This document shows positions 202 to 11,593 of a stretch of 11,593 nucleotides of DNA, piece after piece. The notes beneath the pieces are model-generated. The model saw nothing but the letters and a program-made list of their open reading frames with translations, was not told the DNA's origin and did no database searches. Position 1 is the stretch's first letter, and the number at the start of each line of letters is the position of its first letter. Source of the DNA: Calditrichaceae bacterium (GTDB taxonomy: Bacteria; Calditrichota; Calditrichia; Calditrichales; JBFXGD01); contig JBFXGD010000114.1 in NCBI GenBank assembly GCA_050178385.1, forward strand, positions 1 to 11,593, given 5' to 3'. Both the position numbers and the translations under genes were made by a program.

Positions 202-1242
202 ATGTTAAATCTGCGTTCGCAACTGCGGTTATTATCAGAAAAAATTACCGGAAAAGAAAAAATTGTCATCGGTATTCATGGGTTGAACAATAAGCCTCCC
301 AGGGAATTGCTCCATTTATGGTGGAAACAGGCCATTTTGGAGGGATTAAACCGGATCGGTCATAATGACGAATTATTCACATTAGAAATAGCTTACTGGG
401 CAAATCTTCTCCATCCTGAACCGCTGAATCCTAATATTAAAGACAAGAAGAATCTGCTTTATATCGAAGCTCCTTATGTTCGAGGCAATCCGGATGTTAA
501 GACGGTCACGCCAAATCTGAAAAAGAAAAAAATGCTCGACAAAATAGAACGAAGGCTCGATGAAATGTTCTTTGATGAAGGCAGTTTCCTGAATTACGAT
601 TTTATCTCTGATCTGATTATCCGAAATATGTTTAAGGATCTTGATATTTATTACAACCAGGATTGTCCCGTTAAAACGAATTTCGGATTATGCGCGCGTG
701 AAGCAGTCAGAATTGAACTGGCGGATATGCTCATCCGACACAGAAATAAAAAAATTCTGTTGATCGCGCATTCGATGGGTTCCATTATTGCCTATGATGT
801 ACTTACGCAGGTTGTTCCCGATATCCAAATTGATACGCTAATCACCATCGGATCACCGTTAGGATTACCGTCTATTCAGAAAAAAATATTTGAAGAGCAG
901 GGCAAGGAATACAGGGTGGAAAAACAGGTGTCCACTCCGGAAAATATTAAAAATCACTGGTACAACTTTTCGGACCTGGATGATAAAGTCGCTATAAACT
1001 ATAATCTCGCCGATGATTTCAAAAAAAACAGCAGAAATGTCGCTCCGCAGGATTTTATTGTTGTCAATGACTATACGTATAATGAAGAGAAAAATAATCA
1101 TAAATCATACGGGTATCTGAGAACGCCTGAAGTCGCGAATGCGATTTATAATTTTCTCCGTCCGGAGAAAAGCACTTTCGCTGAGACGATAAAAACAAAT
1201 ATCAAACAAATGTTAAAAAGCTTCGGTGAAGTGAATAAGTAA
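202..1242 (+). CDS. Alpha/beta-hydrolase fold serine hydrolase (lipase/phospholipase/esterase-like), probably cytoplasmic
   Basis: 346-aa ORF. Oxyanion-type IHGL near the N-terminus, nucleophile elbow IAHSMGS (AHSMG at nt 766-780), LITIGSPLG strand, candidate catalytic Asp in WYNFSDLDDKVA and His in NNHKSYGYL. No signal peptide. Confidence 0.8.
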   Translation: MLNLRSQLRLLSEKITGKEKIVIGIHGLNNKPPRELLHLWWKQAILEGLNRIGHNDELFTLEIAYWANLLHPEPLNPNIKDKKNLLYIEAPYVRGNPDVKTVTPNLKKKKMLDKIERRLDEMFFDEGSFLNYDFISDLIIRNMFKDLDIYYNQDCPVKTNFGLCAREAVRIELADMLIRHRNKKILLIAHSMGSIIAYDVLTQVVPDIQIDTLITIGSPLGLPSIQKKIFEEQGKEYRVEKQVSTPENIKNHWYNFSDLDDKVAINYNLADDFKKNSRNVAPQDFIVVNDYTYNEEKNNHKSYGYLRTPEVANAIYNFLRPEKSTFAETIKTNIKQMLKSFGEVNK

Positions 1243-1280
1243 GCTCTAATCGAATCTCAAATTATCAGAGCAGGGACGGG

Positions 1281-2342
1281 ATGTCAAAAAAAACCATCTT
1301 ATTAATCATTGTTATACTGCAAATCATAACGGCCGGCTGCAGCCGGGACGGCGTTATAAGCAGGAAGGGCTCTGTTGCCCCGGCAAAAGGGGTCCCTGTA
1401 TTTATCCTCCCGCTATCCGAAGAACTGACCGGGGATGATATTGAGATTTCAGGTCTTGCCTGGTTTAACAATTACCTGATTATTCTTCCGCAGTACCCTG
1501 AACGTTTTCAAAGTGACGGTAACGGAATGATCTTCGCTATTCCAAAGGCCGAAATATTGGAACGGTTGGAATCGGGTGACAACAAACCACTGGATGCGAT
1601 AAAAATTCCGGTCTTTGCGAAGGGGCTTAACAAAAAAATTGCAGGCTTCGAAGGATTTGAAGCGATTGCCTTTAGAGACAGCACGGCATATCTGACAATA
1701 GAAAGCAAAGAAAACAGGAAAATGAAAGGGCAAATTGTCACGGGCGCCATGAAATCCGATCTCAGCGGGCTTTATATCCAATCAGACAACATTAAAGACA
1801 TTCCGTCTGATGTAAATCTACGCAATATGGCGTTTGAATCACTCGTTATTACAAATAACGGCGTAATGGCGATTTATGAGGCCAACGGCGTCAATGTCAA
1901 TCATTCACCCTATGCGGTTTTATTTGATTTTTCGCTAAATCTGAGTAAACGGATTACGTTCCCCGCTGTTGAATACAGGATCACAGACGCGACATGCGCC
2001 GATTCCGGTAATCGATTCTGGGTAATAAATTATTTTTTCCCCGGTGACGCGAAACTGCTTAATCCGCCCGAAAGCAGTATTCACAAAATAAAGGGTGAAA
2101 AGAGTTCTAAATTCGCCAATTCAGCAGTGGAAAGGATCATTGAACTGCAATACAGTGATTCGATAATATCCGCGACTAATCGGGAAACCATAAATCTGTT
2201 TCCGGCTTCAGGCAGCGATTCACGGAACTGGGAGGGCATAGTGTTGCTGGAAAACAAGGGTTTTATAATGGCAACAGATAAGTTCCCGGTAACTATTCTC
2301 GCCTTTGTCCCGTTCGATAATATCCAAAATGACGGGAATTGA
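1281..2342 (+). CDS. Lipoprotein with a predicted beta-propeller (esterase-like activity of phytase / SdiA-regulated-like)
   Basis: 353 aa. Signal MSKKTILLIIVILQIITAG-C20 with a lipobox-like TAGC. Repeated blade motifs EISGLAW, FEGFEAIAF, NMAFESL, RITDAT, RNWEGIV, GFIMATD. SD-like AGGGA just upstream of the ATG. Confidence 0.65.
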   Translation: MSKKTILLIIVILQIITAGCSRDGVISRKGSVAPAKGVPVFILPLSEELTGDDIEISGLAWFNNYLIILPQYPERFQSDGNGMIFAIPKAEILERLESGDNKPLDAIKIPVFAKGLNKKIAGFEGFEAIAFRDSTAYLTIESKENRKMKGQIVTGAMKSDLSGLYIQSDNIKDIPSDVNLRNMAFESLVITNNGVMAIYEANGVNVNHSPYAVLFDFSLNLSKRITFPAVEYRITDATCADSGNRFWVINYFFPGDAKLLNPPESSIHKIKGEKSSKFANSAVERIIELQYSDSIISATNRETINLFPASGSDSRNWEGIVLLENKGFIMATDKFPVTILAFVPFDNIQNDGN

Positions 2343-2629
2343 ACAGACAGGCAATTTTAATTTTGAGTCGTATTTTCTTCCAAATTTATTGATTCCCCCG
2401 GTGAACTTATTTAAAAATATAAAATATATTATCATTTCTTCCACCTGCCCATTTGGTTATATTTTCTGGTAAACCAAAGAACAACAGTACAATGCTAAAT
2501 TTTAAAGTACTCCAATTTGCCGGTTATCAAAGATTAGAAGTAATAAATAATTTCAAATAATAGATATTTTTTCTGTTTCAGAGTAATCACGATAATTTCC
2601 GGGTAAATTCATTGTAATATATTAATTCA

Positions 2630-2635
2630 GGGGGA
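2630..2635 (+). promoter_or_regulatory. Shine-Dalgarno site of the Yip1 gene
   Basis: GGGGGA ending 5 nt before ATG 2641. Confidence 0.65.
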
Positions 2636-2640
2636 CTCAA

Positions 2641-3234
2641 ATGAATATCGTTGAAAGAATAAAAAGAATTCTGTTAACACCGGCAGCGGAATGGGAAATT
2701 ATCAAGACAGAGCAGTCTTCAGTGTCGGGTCTGTTTACAAATTATGCGATTATTTTAGCGGCTATTCCGGCAGCGGCGGGTTTTATCGGTTTTACTGTTT
2801 TTGGTATTTCATCCGGATATGGTTCATTTAAATTTTCTATGGGAACAGCATTTACCTGGGCGGTTGTTTCATACATAATGTCATTGATTGGTGTATTTGT
2901 AGTGGGGTATGTGATAGATTTTTTAGCGCCGAATTTCGGATCAACAAAGGATCTTGTCTCATCTATGAAGGTGGCAGTTTACGCGTACACAGCGGCATGG
3001 GTTGGCGGAATCTTTAATCTGATTCCTTCACTTGGGATTGTATCTGCCCTCGCCGGAATATATTCGCTCGTTCTTTTATATAAGGGTCTTGAAAGTATTA
3101 AAATGCCGCAGGCCGGTAAACTTGTCAATTATTTCGTAGTAACTCTTCTGATTGCCATTGTGATTTTCTTTATTACCGCCGCCCTGCTGTCCCCCATCTT
3201 AATGAAGGGGAATTTAATGTACGGCGCTCTTTAA
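2641..3234 (+). CDS. Yip1-family (YIP1/DUF1282-like) integral membrane protein
   Basis: 197 aa with about 5 hydrophobic segments. Characteristic N-terminus MNIVERIKRILLTPAAEWEIIK, plus IDFLAPNFG, VAVYAYTAAW and YSLVLLYKGL motifs of bacterial Yip1 proteins. Confidence 0.85.
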   Translation: MNIVERIKRILLTPAAEWEIIKTEQSSVSGLFTNYAIILAAIPAAAGFIGFTVFGISSGYGSFKFSMGTAFTWAVVSYIMSLIGVFVVGYVIDFLAPNFGSTKDLVSSMKVAVYAYTAAWVGGIFNLIPSLGIVSALAGIYSLVLLYKGLESIKMPQAGKLVNYFVVTLLIAIVIFFITAALLSPILMKGNLMYGAL

Positions 3235-3249
3235 ATTCTGACCAGGCAT

Positions 3250-3285
3250 ACTTCTGAAATGCCAGGGATGGCTCAGAAGTTATAT
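3250..3285 (+). terminator. Stem-loop between convergent genes, possible terminator or transcript 3'-end structure
   Basis: ACTTCTGA(3250-3257)-AAT bulge-GCCA-GGGA loop-TGGC-TCAGAAGT(3273-3280) gives a 12-bp stem with a GNRA-type tetraloop, followed only by TATAT (weak U tract). It overlaps the stop codon of the - strand gene. Confidence 0.4.
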
Positions 3286-4175
3286 ACAAAATCCACCCAG
3301 GGAATACCCGGAAATAAAGCATCTTTTCCGAGAACATTAAAAAAACCAAGATCAAAACTCATCGATTCACCAAAAAATCGTAATCCGTACGAGATCAGGG
3401 GATTATCGACACCGGGAAAGATCCAGTTTTCACTTACAAAAGCTACCCGTCGCGCAAACCGGTTTTCCACACCGATCATAAGGACCGGTTCGTTGGCTAC
3501 ATCACCTGACGCGAATCCGTATCCCAGGCCGACCGAAAAACTCCGGTCAGCGCTGCCATAAGTGCCTACGCCGTAAAGAATTCCGAATGTTCCAAAATCA
3601 TCTTCATCGGGAATTTTTATTATCAAAGCGCCAGCCGCGAGATTAATATCATCTGACTGAACCAGGCCGATCTTTGGTGTGAAGAAGAATAACTGGTCAT
3701 TCATGCTCACACCGGGAAAAATAGAAAAACCGCCACCGATTGTCAGCCGGTCAGTCAGGCCATAAGCAATCCCCGGGAAAAAGATGTAATAATCGGAAAA
3801 ATATCCTTTTCCCTTTTTTAGCATCCTTCCTGTCGGCGCGAAATATAGTCTGGTATAATTCGGATTTGGAAACCAGTAACTTCCTCCCCTGATAGAATTT
3901 ACAGGTACTTCATCAATTTTTTTTATACGGGATATTTTGAGGGAGATATTACCCATTTCTGTTTCAAACAGAATCATATCATCCATAATATCGATGGTCC
4001 TGCCTATAAGAGTGGATCCGTCCATGGTCGTGATCATTTGAACCGTCGAAGAATCCGGAATCTGTAACCGGTGAATTACATTTTTCTCCTGAGTGTAACC
4101 TGCCAAAGTGAAGGATAAAACAAATACCAGTAAAATCGCTGATGCGATTACCTTGTGTGATGAGGCCGTTTTCAT
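3273..4175 (-). CDS. Putative outer-membrane beta-barrel protein with a small N-terminal beta domain
   Basis: Sec signal peptide (MKTASSHKVIASAILLVFVLSFTLAG...), many alternating Gly/aromatic beta-strands, C-terminus WVDFVYNF with terminal Phe (BAM-type signal). Start placed at ATG 4175 because the track's GTG (4181) is part of the SD GAGGTG (4179-4184). Confidence 0.7.
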   Translation of the reverse strand: MKTASSHKVIASAILLVFVLSFTLAGYTQEKNVIHRLQIPDSSTVQMITTMDGSTLIGRTIDIMDDMILFETEMGNISLKISRIKKIDEVPVNSIRGGSYWFPNPNYTRLYFAPTGRMLKKGKGYFSDYYIFFPGIAYGLTDRLTIGGGFSIFPGVSMNDQLFFFTPKIGLVQSDDINLAAGALIIKIPDEDDFGTFGILYGVGTYGSADRSFSVGLGYGFASGDVANEPVLMIGVENRFARRVAFVSENWIFPGVDNPLISYGLRFFGESMSFDLGFFNVLGKDALFPGIPWVDFVYNF

Positions 4176-4217
4176 AATCACCTCACAATTTTAATGTGAT
4201 TAAAATGTATTTTAAAA

Positions 4218-5207
4218 CTATGCGCGGCTGATTAAATAGATAGTATATACCACATAAATCACCAAAAACAGAACCGCTTCCCAGCGGTCAAGCGTACGTT
4301 TTTTACCGGTAAACATGGTGAAGAAGAGCAGAAAGGAAGCCGTGATTAAGACCATTAAGTCCAGATTCATCGCGGAGTTGAATGGCAACGGACGAATGAG
4401 AGCGGAGATAGCAAGAATAAAAAAGATATTGAAGATATTTGAGCCAAGAATATTTCCCATGGCAATATCAGACTGCCCCTTATAAGCAGCAACGGCAGAA
4501 GTAAAGAGCTCCGGAAGCGAAGTTCCTATCGCGACGATTGTCAGGCCGATAATCCGGTCACTCACATTAAAATACCTAGCTATGTCAATAGAATTATTCA
4601 CAACAAATTGTCCGCCAAAAAACAAACCCGACAGGCCAAGCAAAATATAAATAACAGTTTTGGCGGTATTCATTTCAATGAATTTTTCCGTATCATCGGT
4701 TTCGACCTTCGAGATTGCAAAAGTGTATATCAAAAAAACAATAAAAAAGAAAAGCAGTACGATCCCTTCACTTCTTGAAAGAATATTCTCCGAGTGATCA
4801 AAAATAATATCATTGCACAGGAATATTAAGACTAAGGAGCCGAGAAGAGCAAAGGGTATTTCACGCCAGACCGTATTCCGGTGTGTTGAAATCGGATTGA
4901 TTAAGCCCGCAATGCCCAATATTAACAAAATGTTTACAATATTACTTCCGATTATATTTCCAAAGCTCAGATCCGCGTTTCCCTTAAGGGAGGCGATGAT
5001 ATTCACCACTAGTTCGGGAGAAGATGTGCCGAAAGCAACAATGGTCAGGCCGATAACCATTGGTGAAATAGAAAAACGAACCGCGAGCGACGCAGAACCT
5101 TCAACAAGAAGATCAGCGCCTTTGATTAAAAGTAAAAAGCCAAACAGCAATAAGGCAAAATTTAAATATAACGGCATATTATTCTTTCTATGTTCTAATA
5201 TTACCAT
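4218..5207 (-). CDS. yrbG: Calcium/sodium antiporter (CaCA/NCX family, YrbG-like)
   Basis: Two inverted-topology repeats with alpha-1 GLTIVAFGTSSPEL...GNIIGSNI and alpha-2 GLTIVAIGTSLPEL...GNILGSNI, about 10 TM segments. The true start may be ATG 5177 (MPLYLNF). Confidence 0.93.
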   Translation of the reverse strand: MVILEHRKNNMPLYLNFALLLFGFLLLIKGADLLVEGSASLAVRFSISPMVIGLTIVAFGTSSPELVVNIIASLKGNADLSFGNIIGSNIVNILLILGIAGLINPISTHRNTVWREIPFALLGSLVLIFLCNDIIFDHSENILSRSEGIVLLFFFIVFLIYTFAISKVETDDTEKFIEMNTAKTVIYILLGLSGLFFGGQFVVNNSIDIARYFNVSDRIIGLTIVAIGTSLPELFTSAVAAYKGQSDIAMGNILGSNIFNIFFILAISALIRPLPFNSAMNLDLMVLITASFLLFFTMFTGKKRTLDRWEAVLFLVIYVVYTIYLISRA

Positions 5208-5267
5208 TTGTCTTTATCGTGAAATTTTCTAAACGCACCACGAAGAACATGAATCTTTCTGACAAAA

Positions 5268-6155
5268 TCATTCCGTCTTTTTTCCGCTTTGATGAGTTAC
5301 CGGAGCATCATTATTGGTAATTGTGACCGGAAAAGGTTTTGTTTCCGAACCGGTATATAATGATATATGTGGGAAAGGAATTTCAATACCTTCTTCATCA
5401 AAACCATTCTTAATTTCTTCAAGAATGCTGTTTTTTAACTTAAGATAATCCGCTTTTACAGCCCACACGGCAAAGAGAAAATCAATGGATGAATCCCCAA
5501 AGCCGGAAAAGATGATCAAAGGTTCAGGTTCCTGTAAGCAAAGCGGATTCTTGTCTGCGATATTTAGTAGAACGGATTTTACTTTTTTGACATCCTCTTT
5601 ATAAGCAACCCCAATATTTACATCCAGCCGACGAATAGGAAAGCGGGTAACGTTGGTCACCTCACTTTTTATAATAGTTTCATTTGGAATTCGAATAAAT
5701 TTGTTGTCAAAGGTTCTGAGTTTGATGGATAATACATCAATGGAGAGCACTTGTCCGGTGGTGCCGCCCACAGTTATGACATCATCAACCATAAACGGTT
5801 TTTCGGCGATCAGAAAAAGGCCGCTGATGATATTTGAGACGGAAGTCTGAGACGCGAATCCAAGCGCGATTCCAACAATTCCGGCGGCGCCAAGGAGATG
5901 AGATAATTTAAACCCGAAATCATTTAAAATGGAAAAAATAATTATCACGACACCTGAATACATAACCAGCTTGCCAAAAATCATTCCCTGCTGTGCGCTC
6001 AGTTTTTTAGTAAAATATTTTTTTATGCTTTTACTTAGCATAAAAGTCAGTGGAAGGCCTATAAATATCAGCGCCAGAAACCTGATAATGGCAGCTGTTT
6101 TTTCTTCTGTAAAAAAATGGCTAAAGTCCAAACCGAGTGAATGTAAAAAGTCCAT
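5268..6155 (-). CDS. mscS: Small-conductance mechanosensitive channel, MscS family (paralog 1)
   Basis: 295 aa, 3 TM. Pore helix GAAGIVGIALGFASQTSVSNIISGLFL, beta domain KPFMVDDVI...G.V...IRIPN, C-terminal GIEIPFPH. SD GAGG at 6161-6164. Confidence 0.93.
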   Translation of the reverse strand: MDFLHSLGLDFSHFFTEEKTAAIIRFLALIFIGLPLTFMLSKSIKKYFTKKLSAQQGMIFGKLVMYSGVVIIIFSILNDFGFKLSHLLGAAGIVGIALGFASQTSVSNIISGLFLIAEKPFMVDDVITVGGTTGQVLSIDVLSIKLRTFDNKFIRIPNETIIKSEVTNVTRFPIRRLDVNIGVAYKEDVKKVKSVLLNIADKNPLCLQEPEPLIIFSGFGDSSIDFLFAVWAVKADYLKLKNSILEEIKNGFDEEGIEIPFPHISLYTGSETKPFPVTITNNDAPVTHQSGKKTE

Positions 6156-6166
6156 ATCAGCCTCGT

Positions 6167-6967
6167 TTAATTTGTGAAAATTCCCATACCGGGAAGATCC
6201 TTCAATGTTGAAAATGTTTTGATCGAAAGACCCTTTTTAGATGGAACCCGTGCGGTATTAATGAGTTTTGCTGATTTTGCGTCAACCGGCGGTCCTTGCG
6301 GGAAATCGATCTGGCTACTGTCCTGTTCACCTTTATATAATATACTTGTATCCCCGGCCCAGAGCTGTTCCTTATCCTGATACAAAGACAAATTTGTAAC
6401 CCGGAGCGCTAATTTTTCCACCAGTAAATCCTGATCAGACTTATTAGACAAAAATATCGGGCAAATGGCCATGTACGGGCGGTCCGGGCCGAGTTCAATC
6501 TGACGCCGCACTCCTGATGAAACCCAGTAGCATAATTCACCTTCAAGAAAGCTTCCAAACCATGTATTTGATAATATGATTGTTGGTATATCAAGCAGCG
6601 GATAGGCGTGCCTTCCGGCGATACCAAGCTGAATCCAGACAGGAATATGGACATAAATCTGAGCCTGACTGTTTTTAACTATCCGGAAGGGAGAGTCAGG
6701 TTTTATAATCACAGGCCGGTCAGGCATCTGAGGTTTTAACTGCAGTTTAGTTATTTCCTTTTTGACCGCCCAGCGGGACCAGGCAATTTTTTCGTGGCTG
6801 ATTTTCTTACTGATAATGTTGTCTTTCCGACTATGAAAATATTCATAGTTTGCCAGCAGTTCATTCTTGGAATACATGAATGAAATTTTAAGATTGCCTA
6901 TGATGTGTTCTTTTGGCTCAGTTGAAATAGTTTCGTAATCTTTCCATGTAAATATTGCTTTACTCAT
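6167..6967 (-). CDS. DUF432-like soluble protein
   Basis: 266 aa, no TM. Segment PDRPVIIKP.SPFRI...IYVHIPVW...DIP..ILSNTWFG...GELCY resembles DUF432 proteins as I recall them. It ends 11 nt before MscS paralog 1. SD AGGA at 6974-6977. Confidence 0.65.
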   Translation of the reverse strand: MSKAIFTWKDYETISTEPKEHIIGNLKISFMYSKNELLANYEYFHSRKDNIISKKISHEKIAWSRWAVKKEITKLQLKPQMPDRPVIIKPDSPFRIVKNSQAQIYVHIPVWIQLGIAGRHAYPLLDIPTIILSNTWFGSFLEGELCYWVSSGVRRQIELGPDRPYMAICPIFLSNKSDQDLLVEKLALRVTNLSLYQDKEQLWAGDTSILYKGEQDSSQIDFPQGPPVDAKSAKLINTARVPSKKGLSIKTFSTLKDLPGMGIFTN

Positions 6968-7088
6968 CGGCTATCCTATCAGCTTATTCAGGAAACAAAA
7001 TGATCGGTAATTTAGTAATAAAGTGAATACAGTACTAAGAATAATCAGTAAAAAGATTAAGAACAATTAAATATCAATTTCCCGAATC

Positions 7089-7967
7089 TCACCGAAGCTC
7101 TTTAACCGGAAGTGGTTCAGCGCTGCGGAGATGTAAATCTCTTTGCGGAAAAGGTATTTCGATCGAGTTTTCCCGGAATTTGCGGACGATGGCGCAATTA
7201 ATATCAGAACGGATTATATGGTGTCTTTTAGTGTCAAGTATCCAGACACGGAGCAGCATATTCCATGATGAATCACCAAAACTGGAAAGCAGGACATCAG
7301 GTTTGGGATTTTTCAAGACATCCTGATGACCGGCAGCGACCTCTTCCAGACATTTAAGCACTAAATCCAGATCAGAGCCGTATGAAACTCCGACTTCAAG
7401 CACAACTCTGATCTTTGGATCCCCATGCGTCCAGTTTATGACGTTTGAAGACACAAATTCAGAATTTGGTACGATAATAGTGATATTGTTAAGCGAACGA
7501 ATAGTCGTTGACCGGAAATTAATGGCGATAACATCACCCTCCGTATCACCAACCGTCACACGGTCTCCGATTTTGATCGGTTGCTCAAACAACAAAATAA
7601 GTCCCGCCACAAAATTGGATGTCACATTTTGAAGCCCGAAACCGATACCAACGGAAAGCAATCCAAAAATAACGGCCAGGCCCGCAAGATTGATTCCGAC
7701 AAATTGAAACGCGACAATGGTACCGATCACCATCACCGTATAATGGGTAATCCTGAGCATCATAAATCTTGTGTTTGTCTCAAGCTGGAGCCTCGTAAAG
7801 ACTCTTTGCAGCAACATACGGTTTATTACTCTGGACAGGATGAAAAACATAAACATCATTAAAATGAACATCAATATTGAAAACATTGTGACCGGAGTCT
7901 GATTCAACTCAAAGAGGGTGACGTTTAGAATTTTGGAAATAACTTGTGAAATTGCCTGAAGATCCAT
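7089..7967 (-). CDS. mscS: Small-conductance mechanosensitive channel, MscS family (paralog 2, MscK/KefA-core-like)
   Basis: 292 aa. GLLSVGIGFGLQNVTSNFVAGLILLFEQPIKIGDRV, IIVPNSEFV..NVINWT, VGVSYGSD, FGDSS and IEIPFPQRDLH, all typical of the MscK-like core but without the large periplasmic domain. Confidence 0.93.
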   Translation of the reverse strand: MDLQAISQVISKILNVTLFELNQTPVTMFSILMFILMMFMFFILSRVINRMLLQRVFTRLQLETNTRFMMLRITHYTVMVIGTIVAFQFVGINLAGLAVIFGLLSVGIGFGLQNVTSNFVAGLILLFEQPIKIGDRVTVGDTEGDVIAINFRSTTIRSLNNITIIVPNSEFVSSNVINWTHGDPKIRVVLEVGVSYGSDLDLVLKCLEEVAAGHQDVLKNPKPDVLLSSFGDSSWNMLLRVWILDTKRHHIIRSDINCAIVRKFRENSIEIPFPQRDLHLRSAEPLPVKELR

Positions 7968-8036
7968 TATTTATCCCACAGAAAATTTAAAGAAAAGTTG
8001 TTATTTATAATCACAGATCTCTGTGTAAAATTCCAT

Positions 8037-8996
8037 TTAGTTCTTGCCGTTGATAAAAGACATCTCATCTGCTGTGATCAGCTTATGATTTAGAAACTCA
8101 GTAATGACAATTTCAGTCATTTCACTGGCAAACGCAAACTCATACCGTATGTCATTTACATAAGCCTTGAGACGCATTTTTAATAATGACCGTCCTTCAT
8201 GTATTTCATTTTTGATAATTATGGCAATCGGTTTATTCAGATAAATATATTTGGATACCGCGGCGGCGCGGAAAGCAATTTTTTTGGCACGGATTAGATC
8301 GATGTTGGGCGGCAGATAAAATTCGGCGACGACCTGACAATTGGATTCTCCCGAGTTTGAATTTGAAACGGATTGATTGACGATTTCACTGTTTGGAATA
8401 GATACAAGGGAATCGTCGGCCGTAACAATTCGCACTGTTCGCAGACCGATTTGAACTACTTCGCCGTAGTATGATCCAACTTCTATCTTGTCACCGGCCT
8501 GAAACGGGCGGTCGAACAGGATCATTATACCGCCAAAAATATTTTTAAGGATATCCTGAGAAGCGAAACCGACCGCTATGCCGGCCGATGCCGTAACGGC
8601 GATCAGGGTTTCTATTGGCGGCGCTATAATTCCCGCGATAATGATATAAAGTATAAATGTCCATCCGGCAATTCGTAATATTGGAACGAGCCCTTTGATA
8701 GTAAGCCTCAGATTGCTGAACCGTTCCGCGAGAGCTTCAAGAAGACGGGTCAGATATTTAATTACAATAAACGCGATAAGAAAAATCAGAAAAGACCATA
8801 TTATTTTCCCAAAAGATATGGACCAGGGGATTTTTGGTCCGGAACTACTGATTTTTTCCTTGATATTGTTTGTTACCGAGATAGAATCCGCCTGCACCAA
8901 GGTATCTTTCACCGCCTGACCGTAGGAAGGCTGGCAGTCAAATATCCCGATTATGATGGCCAGAATGAAAATGGCAGATAAAAATGATCTGTTCAT
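8037..8996 (-). CDS. Atypical MscS-family channel (paralog 3) with a signal-peptide-like N-terminus and no C-terminal IPFP strand
   Basis: 319 aa. AGIAVGFASQDILKNIFGGIMILFDRPFQAGDKIEVG..YGEV..IGLRT...VSIPNS is an MscS core. The N-terminal MNRSFLSAIFILAIIIGIFDCQPSYG|Q looks like a cleavable signal. Confidence 0.88.
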   Translation of the reverse strand: MNRSFLSAIFILAIIIGIFDCQPSYGQAVKDTLVQADSISVTNNIKEKISSSGPKIPWSISFGKIIWSFLIFLIAFIVIKYLTRLLEALAERFSNLRLTIKGLVPILRIAGWTFILYIIIAGIIAPPIETLIAVTASAGIAVGFASQDILKNIFGGIMILFDRPFQAGDKIEVGSYYGEVVQIGLRTVRIVTADDSLVSIPNSEIVNQSVSNSNSGESNCQVVAEFYLPPNIDLIRAKKIAFRAAAVSKYIYLNKPIAIIIKNEIHEGRSLLKMRLKAYVNDIRYEFAFASEMTEIVITEFLNHKLITADEMSFINGKN

Positions 8997-9002
8997 ATTA
9001 AA

Positions 9003-9008
9003 TCCTTA
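9003..9008 (-). promoter_or_regulatory. Shine-Dalgarno site of MscS paralog 3 overlapping the NTPase stop codon
   Basis: The minus strand reads TAAGGA-TTTAAT-ATG, where TAA (9006-9008) is the stop of the upstream NTPase gene. Confidence 0.7.
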
Positions 9009-11593
9009 TTGGATAATATTCTTTGCTTTTAAAATTCTCATCAGCGGGCGATACAAAAATGGATGTATCTGATAACCGCGTTCTTTCTTTATAATCAGAC
9101 CCAGGTTTTCCATCCGCGTAAGTTGCATAAAACTTTGCTGACTGTTCTGATGAAAAATAAGTGCATGAATATTGGGGGAGAGCGTTTCATGCTGGAAGAT
9201 TGCCCCCAGAGTAAAAAGATCTTCGGCCGGAAATCCGTATAGAAATGAAAAATCCATGTCAATATCGGCGGCAAGTATGATTTTATCTGACAATATTTCT
9301 TTAATGGAGCCTAACCAGTAAAGCATGGCAACCGTAACATTTCCGGATGACAGATCATTTAATTGATTAAAAAACAGTGTTTTTAAAAAGTTCTGCCGGT
9401 CTTTATCGGATGTAAGTTTTTTAAATTTCCGGTTGGATCGTATGCTTTCGTTATCTTCGAATTCAAGATTATATCCACTCACGCGGTGACGTTTTAAAAT
9501 GATTGACTGCAGTTCGGCCATTGGAAGAGGACCGAGGAATATCTCTTTATTAAAGAATCTTGAAATATTGATGACCTTATCCAGATAGTTCCAGCTATAA
9601 AGAGTGCAGGAGACAAGCCAGAAAATTTTACCGTATGTACGTGAAACGATCAGGAGAAAACGTTCAATGCTTTCAAATCCGTCCACCACCCGAACGAATA
9701 AGTTCTGTATATTTTCTACAACGCAAACATGTTTTTCTTTACCCTGCAGAATCCATTCTTCGAACTCGTCCAGGCTGTTAATGTCATCGGTTTTAAATGC
9801 CTTTTTGAGAAGAAGAAGTAAATCGTTATTTGTATAGGATTTTTCTAAGATGTCAAGCGTAATCATGTTGTGATTCAGAAAATATTTTTTCTCGGCGAAT
9901 TTTATCAGAGTCGTTCTGCCGCTGCCTCTTTCACCGATCAGAACCGTCGATGCGTATTGATCGTTTTGCCAGTCTGTGAATTCATATTCAATCATAGACA
10001 TTTCTGCATTGCGACCTGCATAAAAACGTTCATCCTCAAGCGGTTCAAACCTGAAAAGCCTCTGATAGACATAGGGCAGTTTAGCCACCTGTTTTTGCGT
10101 GTCGGAAAGAAAAACACTTAGTTGATCTTCGATAACTGTTTCAGGTTTAACGAGTCCGGTTATTTTTCTAAATCTGGAATATCCACCCCAGATCTTCTTG
10201 AAGTTGGTCGTGACAAAAACAAAAATATGTGGAAGAATCGATTTTACAAAAGTGATTGTTTTGTGCCGGTATTCCCTGATTCTCTCTTCAGTTTTAGCTC
10301 TTGCGAATCGTATTTTCAATTCAATTATTTTTTCGTTATCAGCAAGATTTTGTATTTCTTGTTCAAATTCGAGTGAACGTTCAAAAAGCTGTAAATTGCA
10401 CTCTTCAGCGATACTGACACTTTGAGAAAGCAGATCATTAAAAAGTTTTTCGGCTCTTTCAAATCCCCCAAGTACCACTTTTTGAGCCTCGTTAAAATTC
10501 GAGCCGGAGTCATCCTGATTAATGAGATTTAAACCGGCTTCAAGATTAAATTCGACGACCTGATCAATTTCTGAGATGGTTCGGGAAATGCTCTCCAGGT
10601 TTTCTCTTATTGTACTGATAAATTTTTTATATTTTCCCGAGAACTGAGACAGAATTTCTGTGTCAACAAGCTCTTTCAGGGGGATATCGTCTATTTTTGA
10701 TTTTGGCGGTGTGTTTTCATCATCACGATGAACAAAAATGACGTGTTCTTCGGAAAGAATTCCCCGCGCCTTATCAAATTCGGATGAGTAGTTCTCCAGA
10801 ATTTGAATAATCTGTGTCTGAACGATCATATCCAGTACATGCGGCAATTTTACATATCTTAGCTCTTTAATAAGATCGCGGTTTTCTGTGGTTATGGCCT
10901 GTTTCAATGCTTTGGCGGATTTTGGGGCGCGTAATTTTTCCGCGGATTTTGAAAGCAGATCAATCACATCCTTAATGGATGGCTGCATCTTTTTTTCAAT
11001 CTGGTCATAGAGCCGGCGAATCGTACTCTTGTAAATCTGGCTTAGTTTTAACTGCAGAATAGAAAGTTCCAGACTGTTCTGCCAGTCTTCACGTATTCCC
11101 TTAAAATGTAAATCCCATGCTTCCCTGATTTTCTTAAAGCTCTTTTCGAGAAAGGCCCACTGTTTATTAAAGCCGTTTTTCTCGTAGGTTTTTACAGGAT
11201 GAAGAAATGTGCCGGCCAGCTCCCAGTTGCTGTGAAAGCGGGTTAACACATTTTCAAAATTTTGGTTGAACCGGTTTTGAACATCGGATTTAAGTATGTC
11301 CGAATTTATTGCGGAAACGTGTATTTCATCAAGAAGCTCATCAAAAATCGCTGCCGGAACCCGGAGTTCTTTCTTCTCTTCTTCAGTGTATGATTTTAAT
11401 TTTTCAAGAGTGATTCCTTTTTCCTTTAGTCCTTCAACTCCTGATTGAAGCCCGGCAAACTGTAAAGATACGGATTTAAGAAAAAGCTGCCACTCTTGTA
11501 GAATATATTCCACCACCGGGCGTACAATATGATCGGTGTGAAAATCATAAAGAACGAATTTTCTGGTCTGAACCGGGAGTTCTGTTTGGGGTT
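9006..11593 (-). CDS. Large helical protein with a C-terminal STAND/AAA_16-like P-loop NTPase and winged-helix domain, 5'-truncated by the window
   Basis: FYAGRNAE pre-P-loop motif, Walker A GERGSGRTT (9909-9935), Walker B-like VCVVEN (9711-9728), LGPLPMAEL, SSGNV (GxP-equivalent), and a WH-like end LTRMENLGLI...YQIHPFL. The frame stays open upstream of the track's GTG 11516 to the window edge (PQTELPVQTRKFVLYDFHTDHIVRP-VVEYIL), so the protein exceeds ~860 aa. Confidence 0.8.
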   Translation of the reverse strand, partial: PQTELPVQTRKFVLYDFHTDHIVRPVVEYILQEWQLFLKSVSLQFAGLQSGVEGLKEKGITLEKLKSYTEEEKKELRVPAAIFDELLDEIHVSAINSDILKSDVQNRFNQNFENVLTRFHSNWELAGTFLHPVKTYEKNGFNKQWAFLEKSFKKIREAWDLHFKGIREDWQNSLELSILQLKLSQIYKSTIRRLYDQIEKKMQPSIKDVIDLLSKSAEKLRAPKSAKALKQAITTENRDLIKELRYVKLPHVLDMIVQTQIIQILENYSSEFDKARGILSEEHVIFVHRDDENTPPKSKIDDIPLKELVDTEILSQFSGKYKKFISTIRENLESISRTISEIDQVVEFNLEAGLNLINQDDSGSNFNEAQKVVLGGFERAEKLFNDLLSQSVSIAEECNLQLFERSLEFEQEIQNLADNEKIIELKIRFARAKTEERIREYRHKTITFVKSILPHIFVFVTTNFKKIWGGYSRFRKITGLVKPETVIEDQLSVFLSDTQKQVAKLPYVYQRLFRFEPLEDERFYAGRNAEMSMIEYEFTDWQNDQYASTVLIGERGSGRTTLIKFAEKKYFLNHNMITLDILEKSYTNNDLLLLLKKAFKTDDINSLDEFEEWILQGKEKHVCVVENIQNLFVRVVDGFESIERFLLIVSRTYGKIFWLVSCTLYSWNYLDKVINISRFFNKEIFLGPLPMAELQSIILKRHRVSGYNLEFEDNESIRSNRKFKKLTSDKDRQNFLKTLFFNQLNDLSSGNVTVAMLYWLGSIKEILSDKIILAADIDMDFSFLYGFPAEDLFTLGAIFQHETLSPNIHALIFHQNSQQSFMQLTRMENLGLIIKKERGYQIHPFLYRPLMRILKAKNIIQ

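Follow-up and report, generated by a model that had tools for sequence, protein, structure and literature searches.

The stretch of DNA analyzed here (the window) is the entire 11,593-nt contig C114 of a Calditrichaceae bacterium whose genome is 94% complete, and its central feature is a pair of - strand genes that encode a nucleoside triphosphatase (NTPase) of about 1020 residues and, directly after it, a channel of the MscS family that is here called MscS_A. The two genes are co-inherited as a unit, and this two-gene NTPase and MscS_A module is the conserved core of a longer run of co-oriented genes. An earlier reading of the window made without database searches (the sequence-only reading) had placed the pair within a single system of seven genes; the window cluster consists instead of two independent partner-channel modules plus optional ion-transport genes. 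In the favored interpretation, with a probability of roughly 0.6, the NTPase serves as an accessory subunit of the channel, a nucleotide switch that binds to the cage of MscS_A and adjusts the release of solutes. The two genes of the module are:

9006..11593, - strand: gene of the NTPase partner, which loses its 5' part at the end of the contig (861 codons of about 1020 remain); weak matches to AAA_22 and AAA
8037..8996, - strand: MscS_A, 319 aa, PF00924, located 9 nt 3' of the NTPase gene

The distribution of the two genes among related bacteria is revealing of their association. When 41 related genomes were searched with the NTPase and up to 20 kb was fetched around each match, orthologs were found at eight relatives' loci, 30-36% identical to the query and 89% identical in the same genus. 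An MscS_A-type gene lies directly 3' of the NTPase ortholog in all eight, with an identity of 59-90% in seven of them and of 31-33% in the other. The reverse search of the 41 genomes recovered MscS_A orthologs (62-90% identical) in exactly seven other genomes, and in all seven the NTPase ortholog is adjacent. The eighth NTPase-bearing genome is G040, where the MscS beside the NTPase is about 31-33% identical to MscS_A. This gene (contig C162, 7367-8125) contains one in-frame TGA, and a fragment 69% identical to MscS_A is found at the end of another contig of G040 (C71). The explanation that MscS_A is a generic MscS gene present beside the NTPase by chance was rejected, as its high-identity orthologs are confined to NTPase-bearing genomes.

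The same gene order is found in metagenome contigs, which were scanned with a 23-sequence NTPase alignment (A2) and yielded 80 loci with NTPases 25-40% identical; a scan with the single NTPase protein matched a same-genus contig only. Sixty-eight of the 80 loci have at least 900 nt of sequence downstream, and MscS_A is the next gene on the same strand in 67 of these and lies directly upstream in one. Dereplication at 90% identity left 54 NTPase-MscS_A pairs. The gap between the two genes is at most 21 nt in all but one of these non-redundant pairs (53 of 54), and in 16 of the 54 the genes overlap. Over the pairs, the channels resemble one another more closely (median pairwise identity 56%) than the NTPases do (29%).

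The NTPase is paired with an MscS subfamily of its own in each of three NTPase clades that have diverged deeply. The NTPases of loci L032 and L033, which are 25-26% identical, are each followed by a PF00924 gene. Among the related genomes, weak NTPase matches of about 1700 aa proved to be fusions with an SLC12/AA_permease transporter. The source genome itself (G000) carries one of these on contig C39 (locus L134, 884-6025, - strand), a protein of 1713 aa with an N-terminal AA_permease/SLC12 cation-chloride cotransporter, and G002 has the same arrangement. Residues 754-1708 of the contig C39 fusion align over the entire NTPase profile (hhalign probability 99.8%, E 1.9e-29), and an overlapping MscS-like gene of 252 aa follows it (129-887, - strand). 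An MscS-like gene of about 250 aa, whose start abuts or overlaps the stop of the fusion, is present in all eight genomes with this arrangement (G000, G001, G002, G007, G015, G017, G021 and G040). Beyond the phylum, the fusion form is represented by 28 clusters, some of them labeled Bacteroidota or Bacteroidales, with the annotation 'amino acid transporter' or 'AAA family ATPase'. The fused and unfused clades belong to the same NTPase superfamily, at an identity of about 20%, and share the MscS gene directly after the NTPase; they differ in that the window NTPase stands alone and its channel belongs to another, larger MscS subfamily (319 versus 252 aa).

Modeling of a complex between the two proteins had been proposed as a check in the sequence-only reading, and its outcome favors an association. 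The prediction combined NTPase residues 236-1021 (alignment A2) with one copy of the cytoplasmic part of MscS_A, residues 146-319 (55-row alignment A3). The interface score ipSAE was 0.68, 0.68 and 0.66 in three runs, and the best of three controls scored 0.00. At least 62% of contacts are common to the runs, and the predicted local distance difference test score (pLDDT) of the partner is at least 76. In a calibration that is approximate here, as custom alignments were used, 116 of 157 solved complexes scored as high as this, compared with 2 of 215 mismatched pairs. On the NTPase side the confident contacts fall at residues 794-799 and 829-833 of the AAA+ domain, at 953/957 and 972-973 of the winged helix, and at the C-terminal residues 1017-1021, which include the invariant N1018. 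On the channel side they fall at residues 218-219, 240-254, 281-282, 296 and 300, within the subfamily-specific alpha/beta domain. The NTPase contact residues are more conserved than the average of their domain (0.68 versus 0.52, random-subset p about 0.007). The prediction supports docking of the AAA+ and winged-helix module of the NTPase on the cytoplasmic domain of MscS_A. The coupling of NTPase and MscS is real at the level of gene organization, and the complex model supports it. The claim that the NTPase partners the MscS channels of the cluster is strongly supported for MscS_A, on the basis of adjacency, co-occurrence, gap lengths and the docking model, but does not extend to the cluster as a whole, as the seven genes are not one system.

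The architecture of the NTPase was examined on an AlphaFold2 (AF2) model of P0002, an ortholog 88% identical to the window NTPase (mean pLDDT 84). Residues 1-640 form very long helices and lead into a low-confidence linker (635-648), after which an alpha/beta AAA+ domain, a lid and a winged helix extend to the C-terminus. The best fold match of this C-terminal module (about 663-1020) is ORC/Cdc6, with 7jgr_G at Z 16.5 and a root-mean-square deviation of 3.3 over 246 residues (VIA); the top Foldseek matches are 1w5t, 7jgr and 1fnn (E 3e-8 to 2e-7). Further matches are TnsC, BrxC, clamp loaders and the archaeal AAA+ proteins 2fna and 2qen, followed by STAND proteins (ZAR1 Z 13.4, CED-4 12.2, Apaf-1 12.1, Avs3 11.9). 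The AAA+ base, lid and C-terminal winged helix are therefore shared with ORC/Cdc6, the closest group structurally, and with SSO1545 (2fna) and PAB2304 (2qen), at Z 16.5 to 13.1. The NTPase differs from ORC/Cdc6 in its 640-residue helical N-domain, in its variable Walker A lysine and in its Walker B motif of hhhhE[N/D]. Its winged helix is also predicted by the complex model to bind protein, and its context is not one of replication, as the Pfam scan of neighbors found no replication genes beside the NTPase-MscS_A pair in other loci.

The nucleotide-binding motifs of this family are distinctive. The canonical consensus is GxxxxGK[ST] for Walker A and hhhhD[DE] for Walker B. In the NTPase, the P-loop reads GE[K/R]GSGxTT (window about 9840-9870, - strand; alignment A2 713-721). 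Across 76 sequences the position of the Walker A lysine is occupied by K in 29, by R in 12 and by A, I, L or T in 35. Four positions earlier, 63 of the 76 have K or R, possibly as a relocated lysine, and three sequences have neither basic residue. Walker B consists of hhhhE followed by N (44) or D (25).

The description of the protein in the sequence-only reading as a STAND-like NTPase is accordingly only partly borne out. In its favor, the order of nucleotide-binding domain, helical domain and winged helix with a conserved histidine that is typical of STAND proteins (Apaf-1, CED-4, plant NLRs, Avs) is found in the AF2 model, with fold matches of Z 12-13.4. The histidine in question would be H961, which is invariant in the winged-helix region of the NTPase alignment and is presumed equivalent to the STAND winged-helix histidine. 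In contrast, the best fold is that of ORC/Cdc6, the canonical STAND Walker A and B motifs are not present in the family, and the curated STAND-type profiles AAA_16, nSTAND6 and AAA_22 score only under their cut-offs. The NTPase also differs from STAND proteins in its lack of a defense context and of a C-terminal repeat sensor: no TPR, WD40 or LRR repeats follow the NOD, as the P0002 model ends directly past the winged helix.

Members of the NTPase family are proteins of about 1000 aa that align from end to end. When 1.84 billion representatives were searched with the family profile, 4,059 matched at E <=1e-3, 3,260 at 1e-10 and 1,849 at 1e-30, which puts the size of the family at about 1,850 to 4,000 clusters (50% identity). 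Source labels among the records of family members include Calditrichia, KSB1, Glassbacteria, Thermoanaerobaculia, SAR324, Desulfatiferula, Ignavibacteriaceae, Fulvivirga and Catalinimonas, and most records are annotated as hypothetical or 'ATP-binding protein'.

In the mechanism proposed here, the NTPase and MscS_A genes would be co-transcribed and probably also translationally coupled. A cleft that the NTPase forms from its AAA+ base, winged helix and invariant C-terminal tail would then clamp the subfamily-specific alpha/beta domain of the channel, with one NTPase per channel subunit. Judging from its motifs, the NTPase is most likely a nucleotide-binding switch with weak or no hydrolysis; it would act as a slow, nucleotide-bound switch rather than a motor because the Walker A lysine is often replaced and Walker B reads hhhhE[N/D]. 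A change in nucleotide state would alter the geometry of the AAA+ domain and winged helix, and this in turn would shift the gating threshold of the channel or the access to its cytoplasmic portals. Physiologically, the module most likely serves ion and turgor homeostasis by controlling solute release. Such a role is favored over defense because of the CorA, CaCA and porin context, the SLC12 fusion, the lack of any PADLOC match and the lack of a defense island. Both the nucleotide-dependent regulation of MscS_A and the homeostatic role are what we infer from these data. A wider scheme is possible and is offered only tentatively, in which the module would form part of a turgor and ion 'homeostat': an NTPase would sit on each subunit of the MscS heptamer, in the fused clade it would also be tied to SLC12, and release and uptake would be controlled reciprocally by nucleotide or ionic state, with DUF432 as a second, unrelated class of MscS accessory protein.

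The remaining five genes of the cluster are:

7089..7967, - strand: MscS_B, a canonical MscS/MscK-core-like channel (PF00924, PF21082, PF21088)
6167..6967, - strand: DUF432 protein, soluble and all-beta (PF04254)
5268..6155, - strand: MscS_C, 11 nt 3' of the DUF432 gene (PF00924, PF21082, PF21088)
4218..5207, - strand: CaCA-family Ca2+/Na+ antiporter (PF01699 and TIGR00367 over cut-off)
3273..4181, - strand: 302-aa secreted protein, putative outer-membrane beta-barrel, with no Pfam or NCBIfam match

The three MscS paralogs, the DUF432 protein and the Na+/Ca2+ exchanger named in the sequence-only reading were all confirmed by Pfam and NCBIfam. PF00924 matches MscS_A, MscS_B and MscS_C with E values of 6.1e-22, 1.1e-24 and 7.2e-21, all over the cut-off of 20.2 bits, and the pairwise identity among the three is 24-35% (tblastn). 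PF21082, the C-terminal alpha/beta domain of the cytoplasmic cage, is found in MscS_B and MscS_C. MscS_A has no PF21082 match, yet it aligns to residues 833-1071 of MscK and to MscM up to residue 1070; it possesses a signal-peptide-like N-terminus (as judged by sequence), transmembrane helices, a beta domain and a C-terminal alpha/beta domain that is specific to its subfamily. The CaCA antiporter matches PF01699 in two stretches (E 9e-72) and TIGR00367 with 250 bits against a cut-off of 179.65.

The DUF432 and MscS_C genes form a second, separate pair of accessory protein and channel that is unrelated to the NTPase module. The window DUF432 protein scores 29.5 bits with PF04254, whose cut-off is 21, and 31.3 bits when the genome was searched; among 14 control genomes the family matched in Methanosarcina acetivorans only. 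A DUF432 homolog was found in 18 of 86 genomes of the phylum searched, and each of the 18 has an MscS_C ortholog, 58-100% identical, immediately 3' on the same strand (loci L115-L132). The suggestion that DUF432 is a partner of MscS holds in the form of an invariant gene pairing with MscS_C, but this pair is a separate module that is mostly located elsewhere: it adjoins the NTPase pair only in G000, G001 and G002. In G078 an MscS_A fragment lies upstream of DUF432-MscS_C, and G015 has the two pairs on separate contigs. The AF2 model of DUF432 is all-beta (pLDDT 82) and has no convincing structural match in the PDB (best Z 5.4, Foldseek E 0.015 or worse), nor was a PDB sequence match found. No mention of DUF432 was found in the literature searched, which did not extend to subscription journals.

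The other genes of the window accompany the NTPase pair less faithfully. The gene-neighborhood check called for by the sequence-only reading found the NTPase and MscS_A together throughout (8/8 relatives' loci and 68/68 metagenome loci), whereas MscS_B follows MscS_A in 5/8 relatives' loci, DUF432 with MscS_C is present in 2/8, CaCA in 2/8 and the 302-aa protein in 1/8. MscS_B and CaCA are recurrent but optional neighbors; CaCA adjoins MscS modules in loci L024, L031, L066 and L117. The 302-aa protein occurs alongside the modules in the same genus only (1/8 relatives' loci and 1/80 metagenome loci) and is an unrelated neighbor from an independently conserved family, with members of about 300 aa that are 55-60% identical in records from KSB1, Desantisbacteria, Latescibacteria, Zixibacteria and Elusimicrobia. 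With members in several phyla, both of the FCB group and others, this family is unusually conserved for a protein outside Pfam. The earlier assignment of the protein as an outer-membrane barrel is unverified: searches of Pfam, NCBIfam and PDB sequences gave no match, and atlas leads to OMP_b-brl and Phenol_MetA_deg clusters scored 0.87-0.88, under the lead threshold of 0.9. It is possibly an outer-membrane barrel.

A broader view of the context was obtained by comparing 138 neighbor proteins (positions -1, +2 and +3) of the 54 non-redundant loci with Pfam. These include extra MscS channels (13 loci), CorA (7 loci), CaCA (1 locus) and an Na+/H+ exchanger (1 locus). Outer-membrane channel families lie directly beside the pair in 6 of the 54 loci: Porin_O_P directly 3' of MscS_A in L036, L038 and L047, one of which also has OprB upstream, and Phenol_MetA_deg directly upstream of the pair in L085, L086 and L097. 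The outer-membrane channel genes, together with the CorA genes found downstream in seven loci, are a hint of cation or solute passage across both membranes. The remaining neighbors are assorted housekeeping genes. No integrase or transposase was present among the 138 neighbors, and the defense-like proteins amount to one Mrr-like protein (Mrr_cat) and one caspase-FGE protein. PADLOC (2023 library) returned no match for the seven window proteins and P0002.

The layout of the window is as the sequence-only reading described it. Seven successive - strand open reading frames (ORFs) extend across 3273-11591, the last of them open at the contig end, and the gaps computed from their coordinates are 9, 69, 121, 11, 60 and 36 nt, the last having been given as about 40. 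The claim that no clear intrinsic terminator separates the genes also holds, as a simple scan found no - strand terminator-like site inside any intergenic gap of the cluster; in total the scan gave 13 terminator-like sites, compared with 8.6 +/- 2.7 in shuffled sequence. The 5' end of the NTPase gene is carried by contig C151, whose positions 1-222 overlap the final 222 nt of the window (11372-11593) at 97% identity. Joining the two contigs gives a full NTPase of about 1020 aa, and the same-genus ortholog P0002 has 1021 aa. Mismatches in the 222-nt overlap cluster toward the end of the window. The contig break inside the gene looks like an assembly or strain-variant break rather than a real truncation. 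A GTG at 11516 was rejected as the start of the NTPase, as the frame is open to the contig end and runs on into C151. Upstream on C151, the same strand encodes thioredoxin, a 610-aa unknown protein, DUF2062, UDG, a 101-aa ORF, ParC and ParE. Co-orientation runs into these housekeeping genes and therefore is by itself no evidence of a system. On the other side of the cluster, three convergent + strand genes encode a PGAP1/LCAT-like alpha/beta hydrolase (202-1242), a familyless lipoprotein-like protein of 353 aa (1281-2342) and a Yip1-domain membrane protein (2641-3234); their arrangement (202-3234) recurs in the genome from the same genus.

Several other explanations of the NTPase-MscS_A pair may be considered. 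In anti-phage abortive infection, the helical N-domain would sense a phage cue and the NTPase would force MscS open so that the cell depolarizes. Such a role would be in keeping with the STAND immune proteins (ZAR1, CED-4, Apaf-1, Avs3) among the fold matches of the AAA+ and winged-helix module, with the patchy occurrence of the pair among relatives and its variable flanks, and with the fast divergence of the presumed sensor part beside a conserved effector. It would also parallel Tmn, which according to a preprint is a membrane P-loop NTPase that defends by ion export (bioRxiv 10.64898/2026.03.01.708804); what the two share is the idea of NTPase-driven ion flux, as Tmn is described there as a membrane protein of the YobI family and not as an MscS partner. 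Abortive infection is nonetheless unlikely. PADLOC (2023 library) gave 0 matches for eight proteins, and the 138 neighbors include no integrase or transposase and only one Mrr-like nuclease and one caspase-FGE protein; the recurrent neighbors are ion transporters and porins, a related NTPase is fused to a housekeeping-type SLC12 cotransporter, and the NTPase is without a C-terminal repeat sensor. Moreover, about half of the members have lost the Walker A lysine, whereas Walker A mutations are reported to abolish defense by Tmn (bioRxiv 10.64898/2026.03.01.708804). Of the two functions offered by the sequence-only reading, osmotic or ion homeostasis thus fits the context, while NTPase-triggered defense found no support.

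An NTPase that makes no contact with the channel and instead serves as a MalT- or ORC-like DNA-binding regulator of the channel operon is likewise improbable, even with a winged helix, fold matches to the DNA-binding ORC/Cdc6 and MalT (8bob, Z 12.5) and an NTPase gene that comes first in the operon. The overlap or short spacing (at most 21 nt) of the genes in 53 of 54 pairs suggests that the two proteins are produced together in stoichiometric amounts, the predicted complex passes its controls with the winged helix inside the interface, the fused clade tethers the module to a membrane transporter, and the pairing is kept by three clades that have diverged deeply and have separate MscS subfamilies. 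The predicted docking and strict co-inheritance, along with the AAA+ fold, would also be consistent with a chaperone or scaffold that builds or localizes the MscS_A heptamer and does not regulate its gating. This appears quite improbable given that the catalytic motifs are degenerate and that ORC- and STAND-type modules act as switches, not unfoldases. Finally, the concept of all seven genes as one regulated ion-flux system is largely refuted by the neighborhood counts and must be regarded as very unlikely. Co-orientation, short gaps, the absence of terminator-like sites between the genes and the preservation of gene order in the same-genus genome speak for it, but the full set is never seen outside the genus, co-orientation carries on into housekeeping genes, DUF432 and MscS_C are usually found away from the NTPase pair (beside it in 2/8 relatives' loci), CaCA is present in 2/8 and the 302-aa protein in 1/8 (and in 1/80 metagenome loci).

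The interpretation of the NTPase as a regulatory subunit of MscS_A must itself be weighed against several observations that count against it. The N-terminal 640 residues have no informative match in a whole-model fold search; residues of about 342-572 matched designed helical bundles only (Z 12.8-15.2), which is non-specific for long helices, and residues 1-640 gave no usable match in the ESM atlas. Given the non-canonical Walker A and B motifs, many members of the family may not bind nucleotide. The contact residues of MscS_A are no more conserved than their own domain (0.72 versus 0.72, p 0.49), a domain that is highly conserved throughout, and the docking model represents one channel subunit without transmembrane helices, outside the presumed heptamer, and carries model confidence only. 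The distribution of the NTPase is patchy, with any match in 12 of the 41 related genomes and an unfused ortholog in nine. This patchiness, the variable flanks and the fast divergence of the NTPase (29% versus 56%) are also typical of accessory or defense genes. In addition, no one kind of ion-transport neighbor is present in most of the loci, and related loci do not count as independent cases. Among the sequencing runs searched, none of RNA contains the window.

Comparison with known systems places the module among the channels of the MscS family. MscS_A, MscS_B and MscS_C share the pore helix and beta domain (PF00924) with MscS/YggB, MscK, MscM and YnaI, and MscS_A differs from the characterized channels in that it represents a distinct, very conserved subfamily that always occurs with the gene for the 1020-aa NTPase. 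To our knowledge, the characterized MscS channels are taken to work alone and serve as the standard case of a channel that membrane tension itself opens, with no need of a partner. Ion channels with separate nucleotide-binding regulatory subunits are found elsewhere, as in KtrAB/TrkAH with their RCK rings and in KATP (Kir6/SUR). The likeness of these to the NTPase-MscS_A module is in concept only, that of a cytoplasmic nucleotide-binding partner which sets gating; they differ both in the channel fold, here MscS, and in the nucleotide-binding fold, and there is no homology. No description of an NTPase-MscS pair was found in a literature search that ran mainly on titles and the openings of abstracts, with subscription journals outside its scope. 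The sole protein partner of MscS that this search turned up is FtsZ (PMC4440785).

That the genes of the NTPase and its MscS channel always occur together, in many bacterial phyla, suggests that some MscS channels, long thought to be solitary, have a dedicated regulatory partner. Should the NTPase prove to be obligate for its channel, some MscS channels would be under the control of a cytoplasmic nucleotide switch, and this would provide a testable link between the energy or ionic state of the cell and emergency solute release. The named isolates with members of the NTPase family (Catalinimonas alkaloidigena, Fulvivirga sp. M361 and Desulfatiferula olefinivorans) should make bench tests possible. 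The SLC12 fusion broadens this idea, as solute uptake could then be coordinated with release, and the homeostat, if true, would correspond in bacteria to the way in which WNK-SPAK controls NKCC and KCC in the regulation of animal cell volume. The DUF432-MscS_C pair in turn suggests that accessory subunits of MscS channels may be a wider and overlooked theme.

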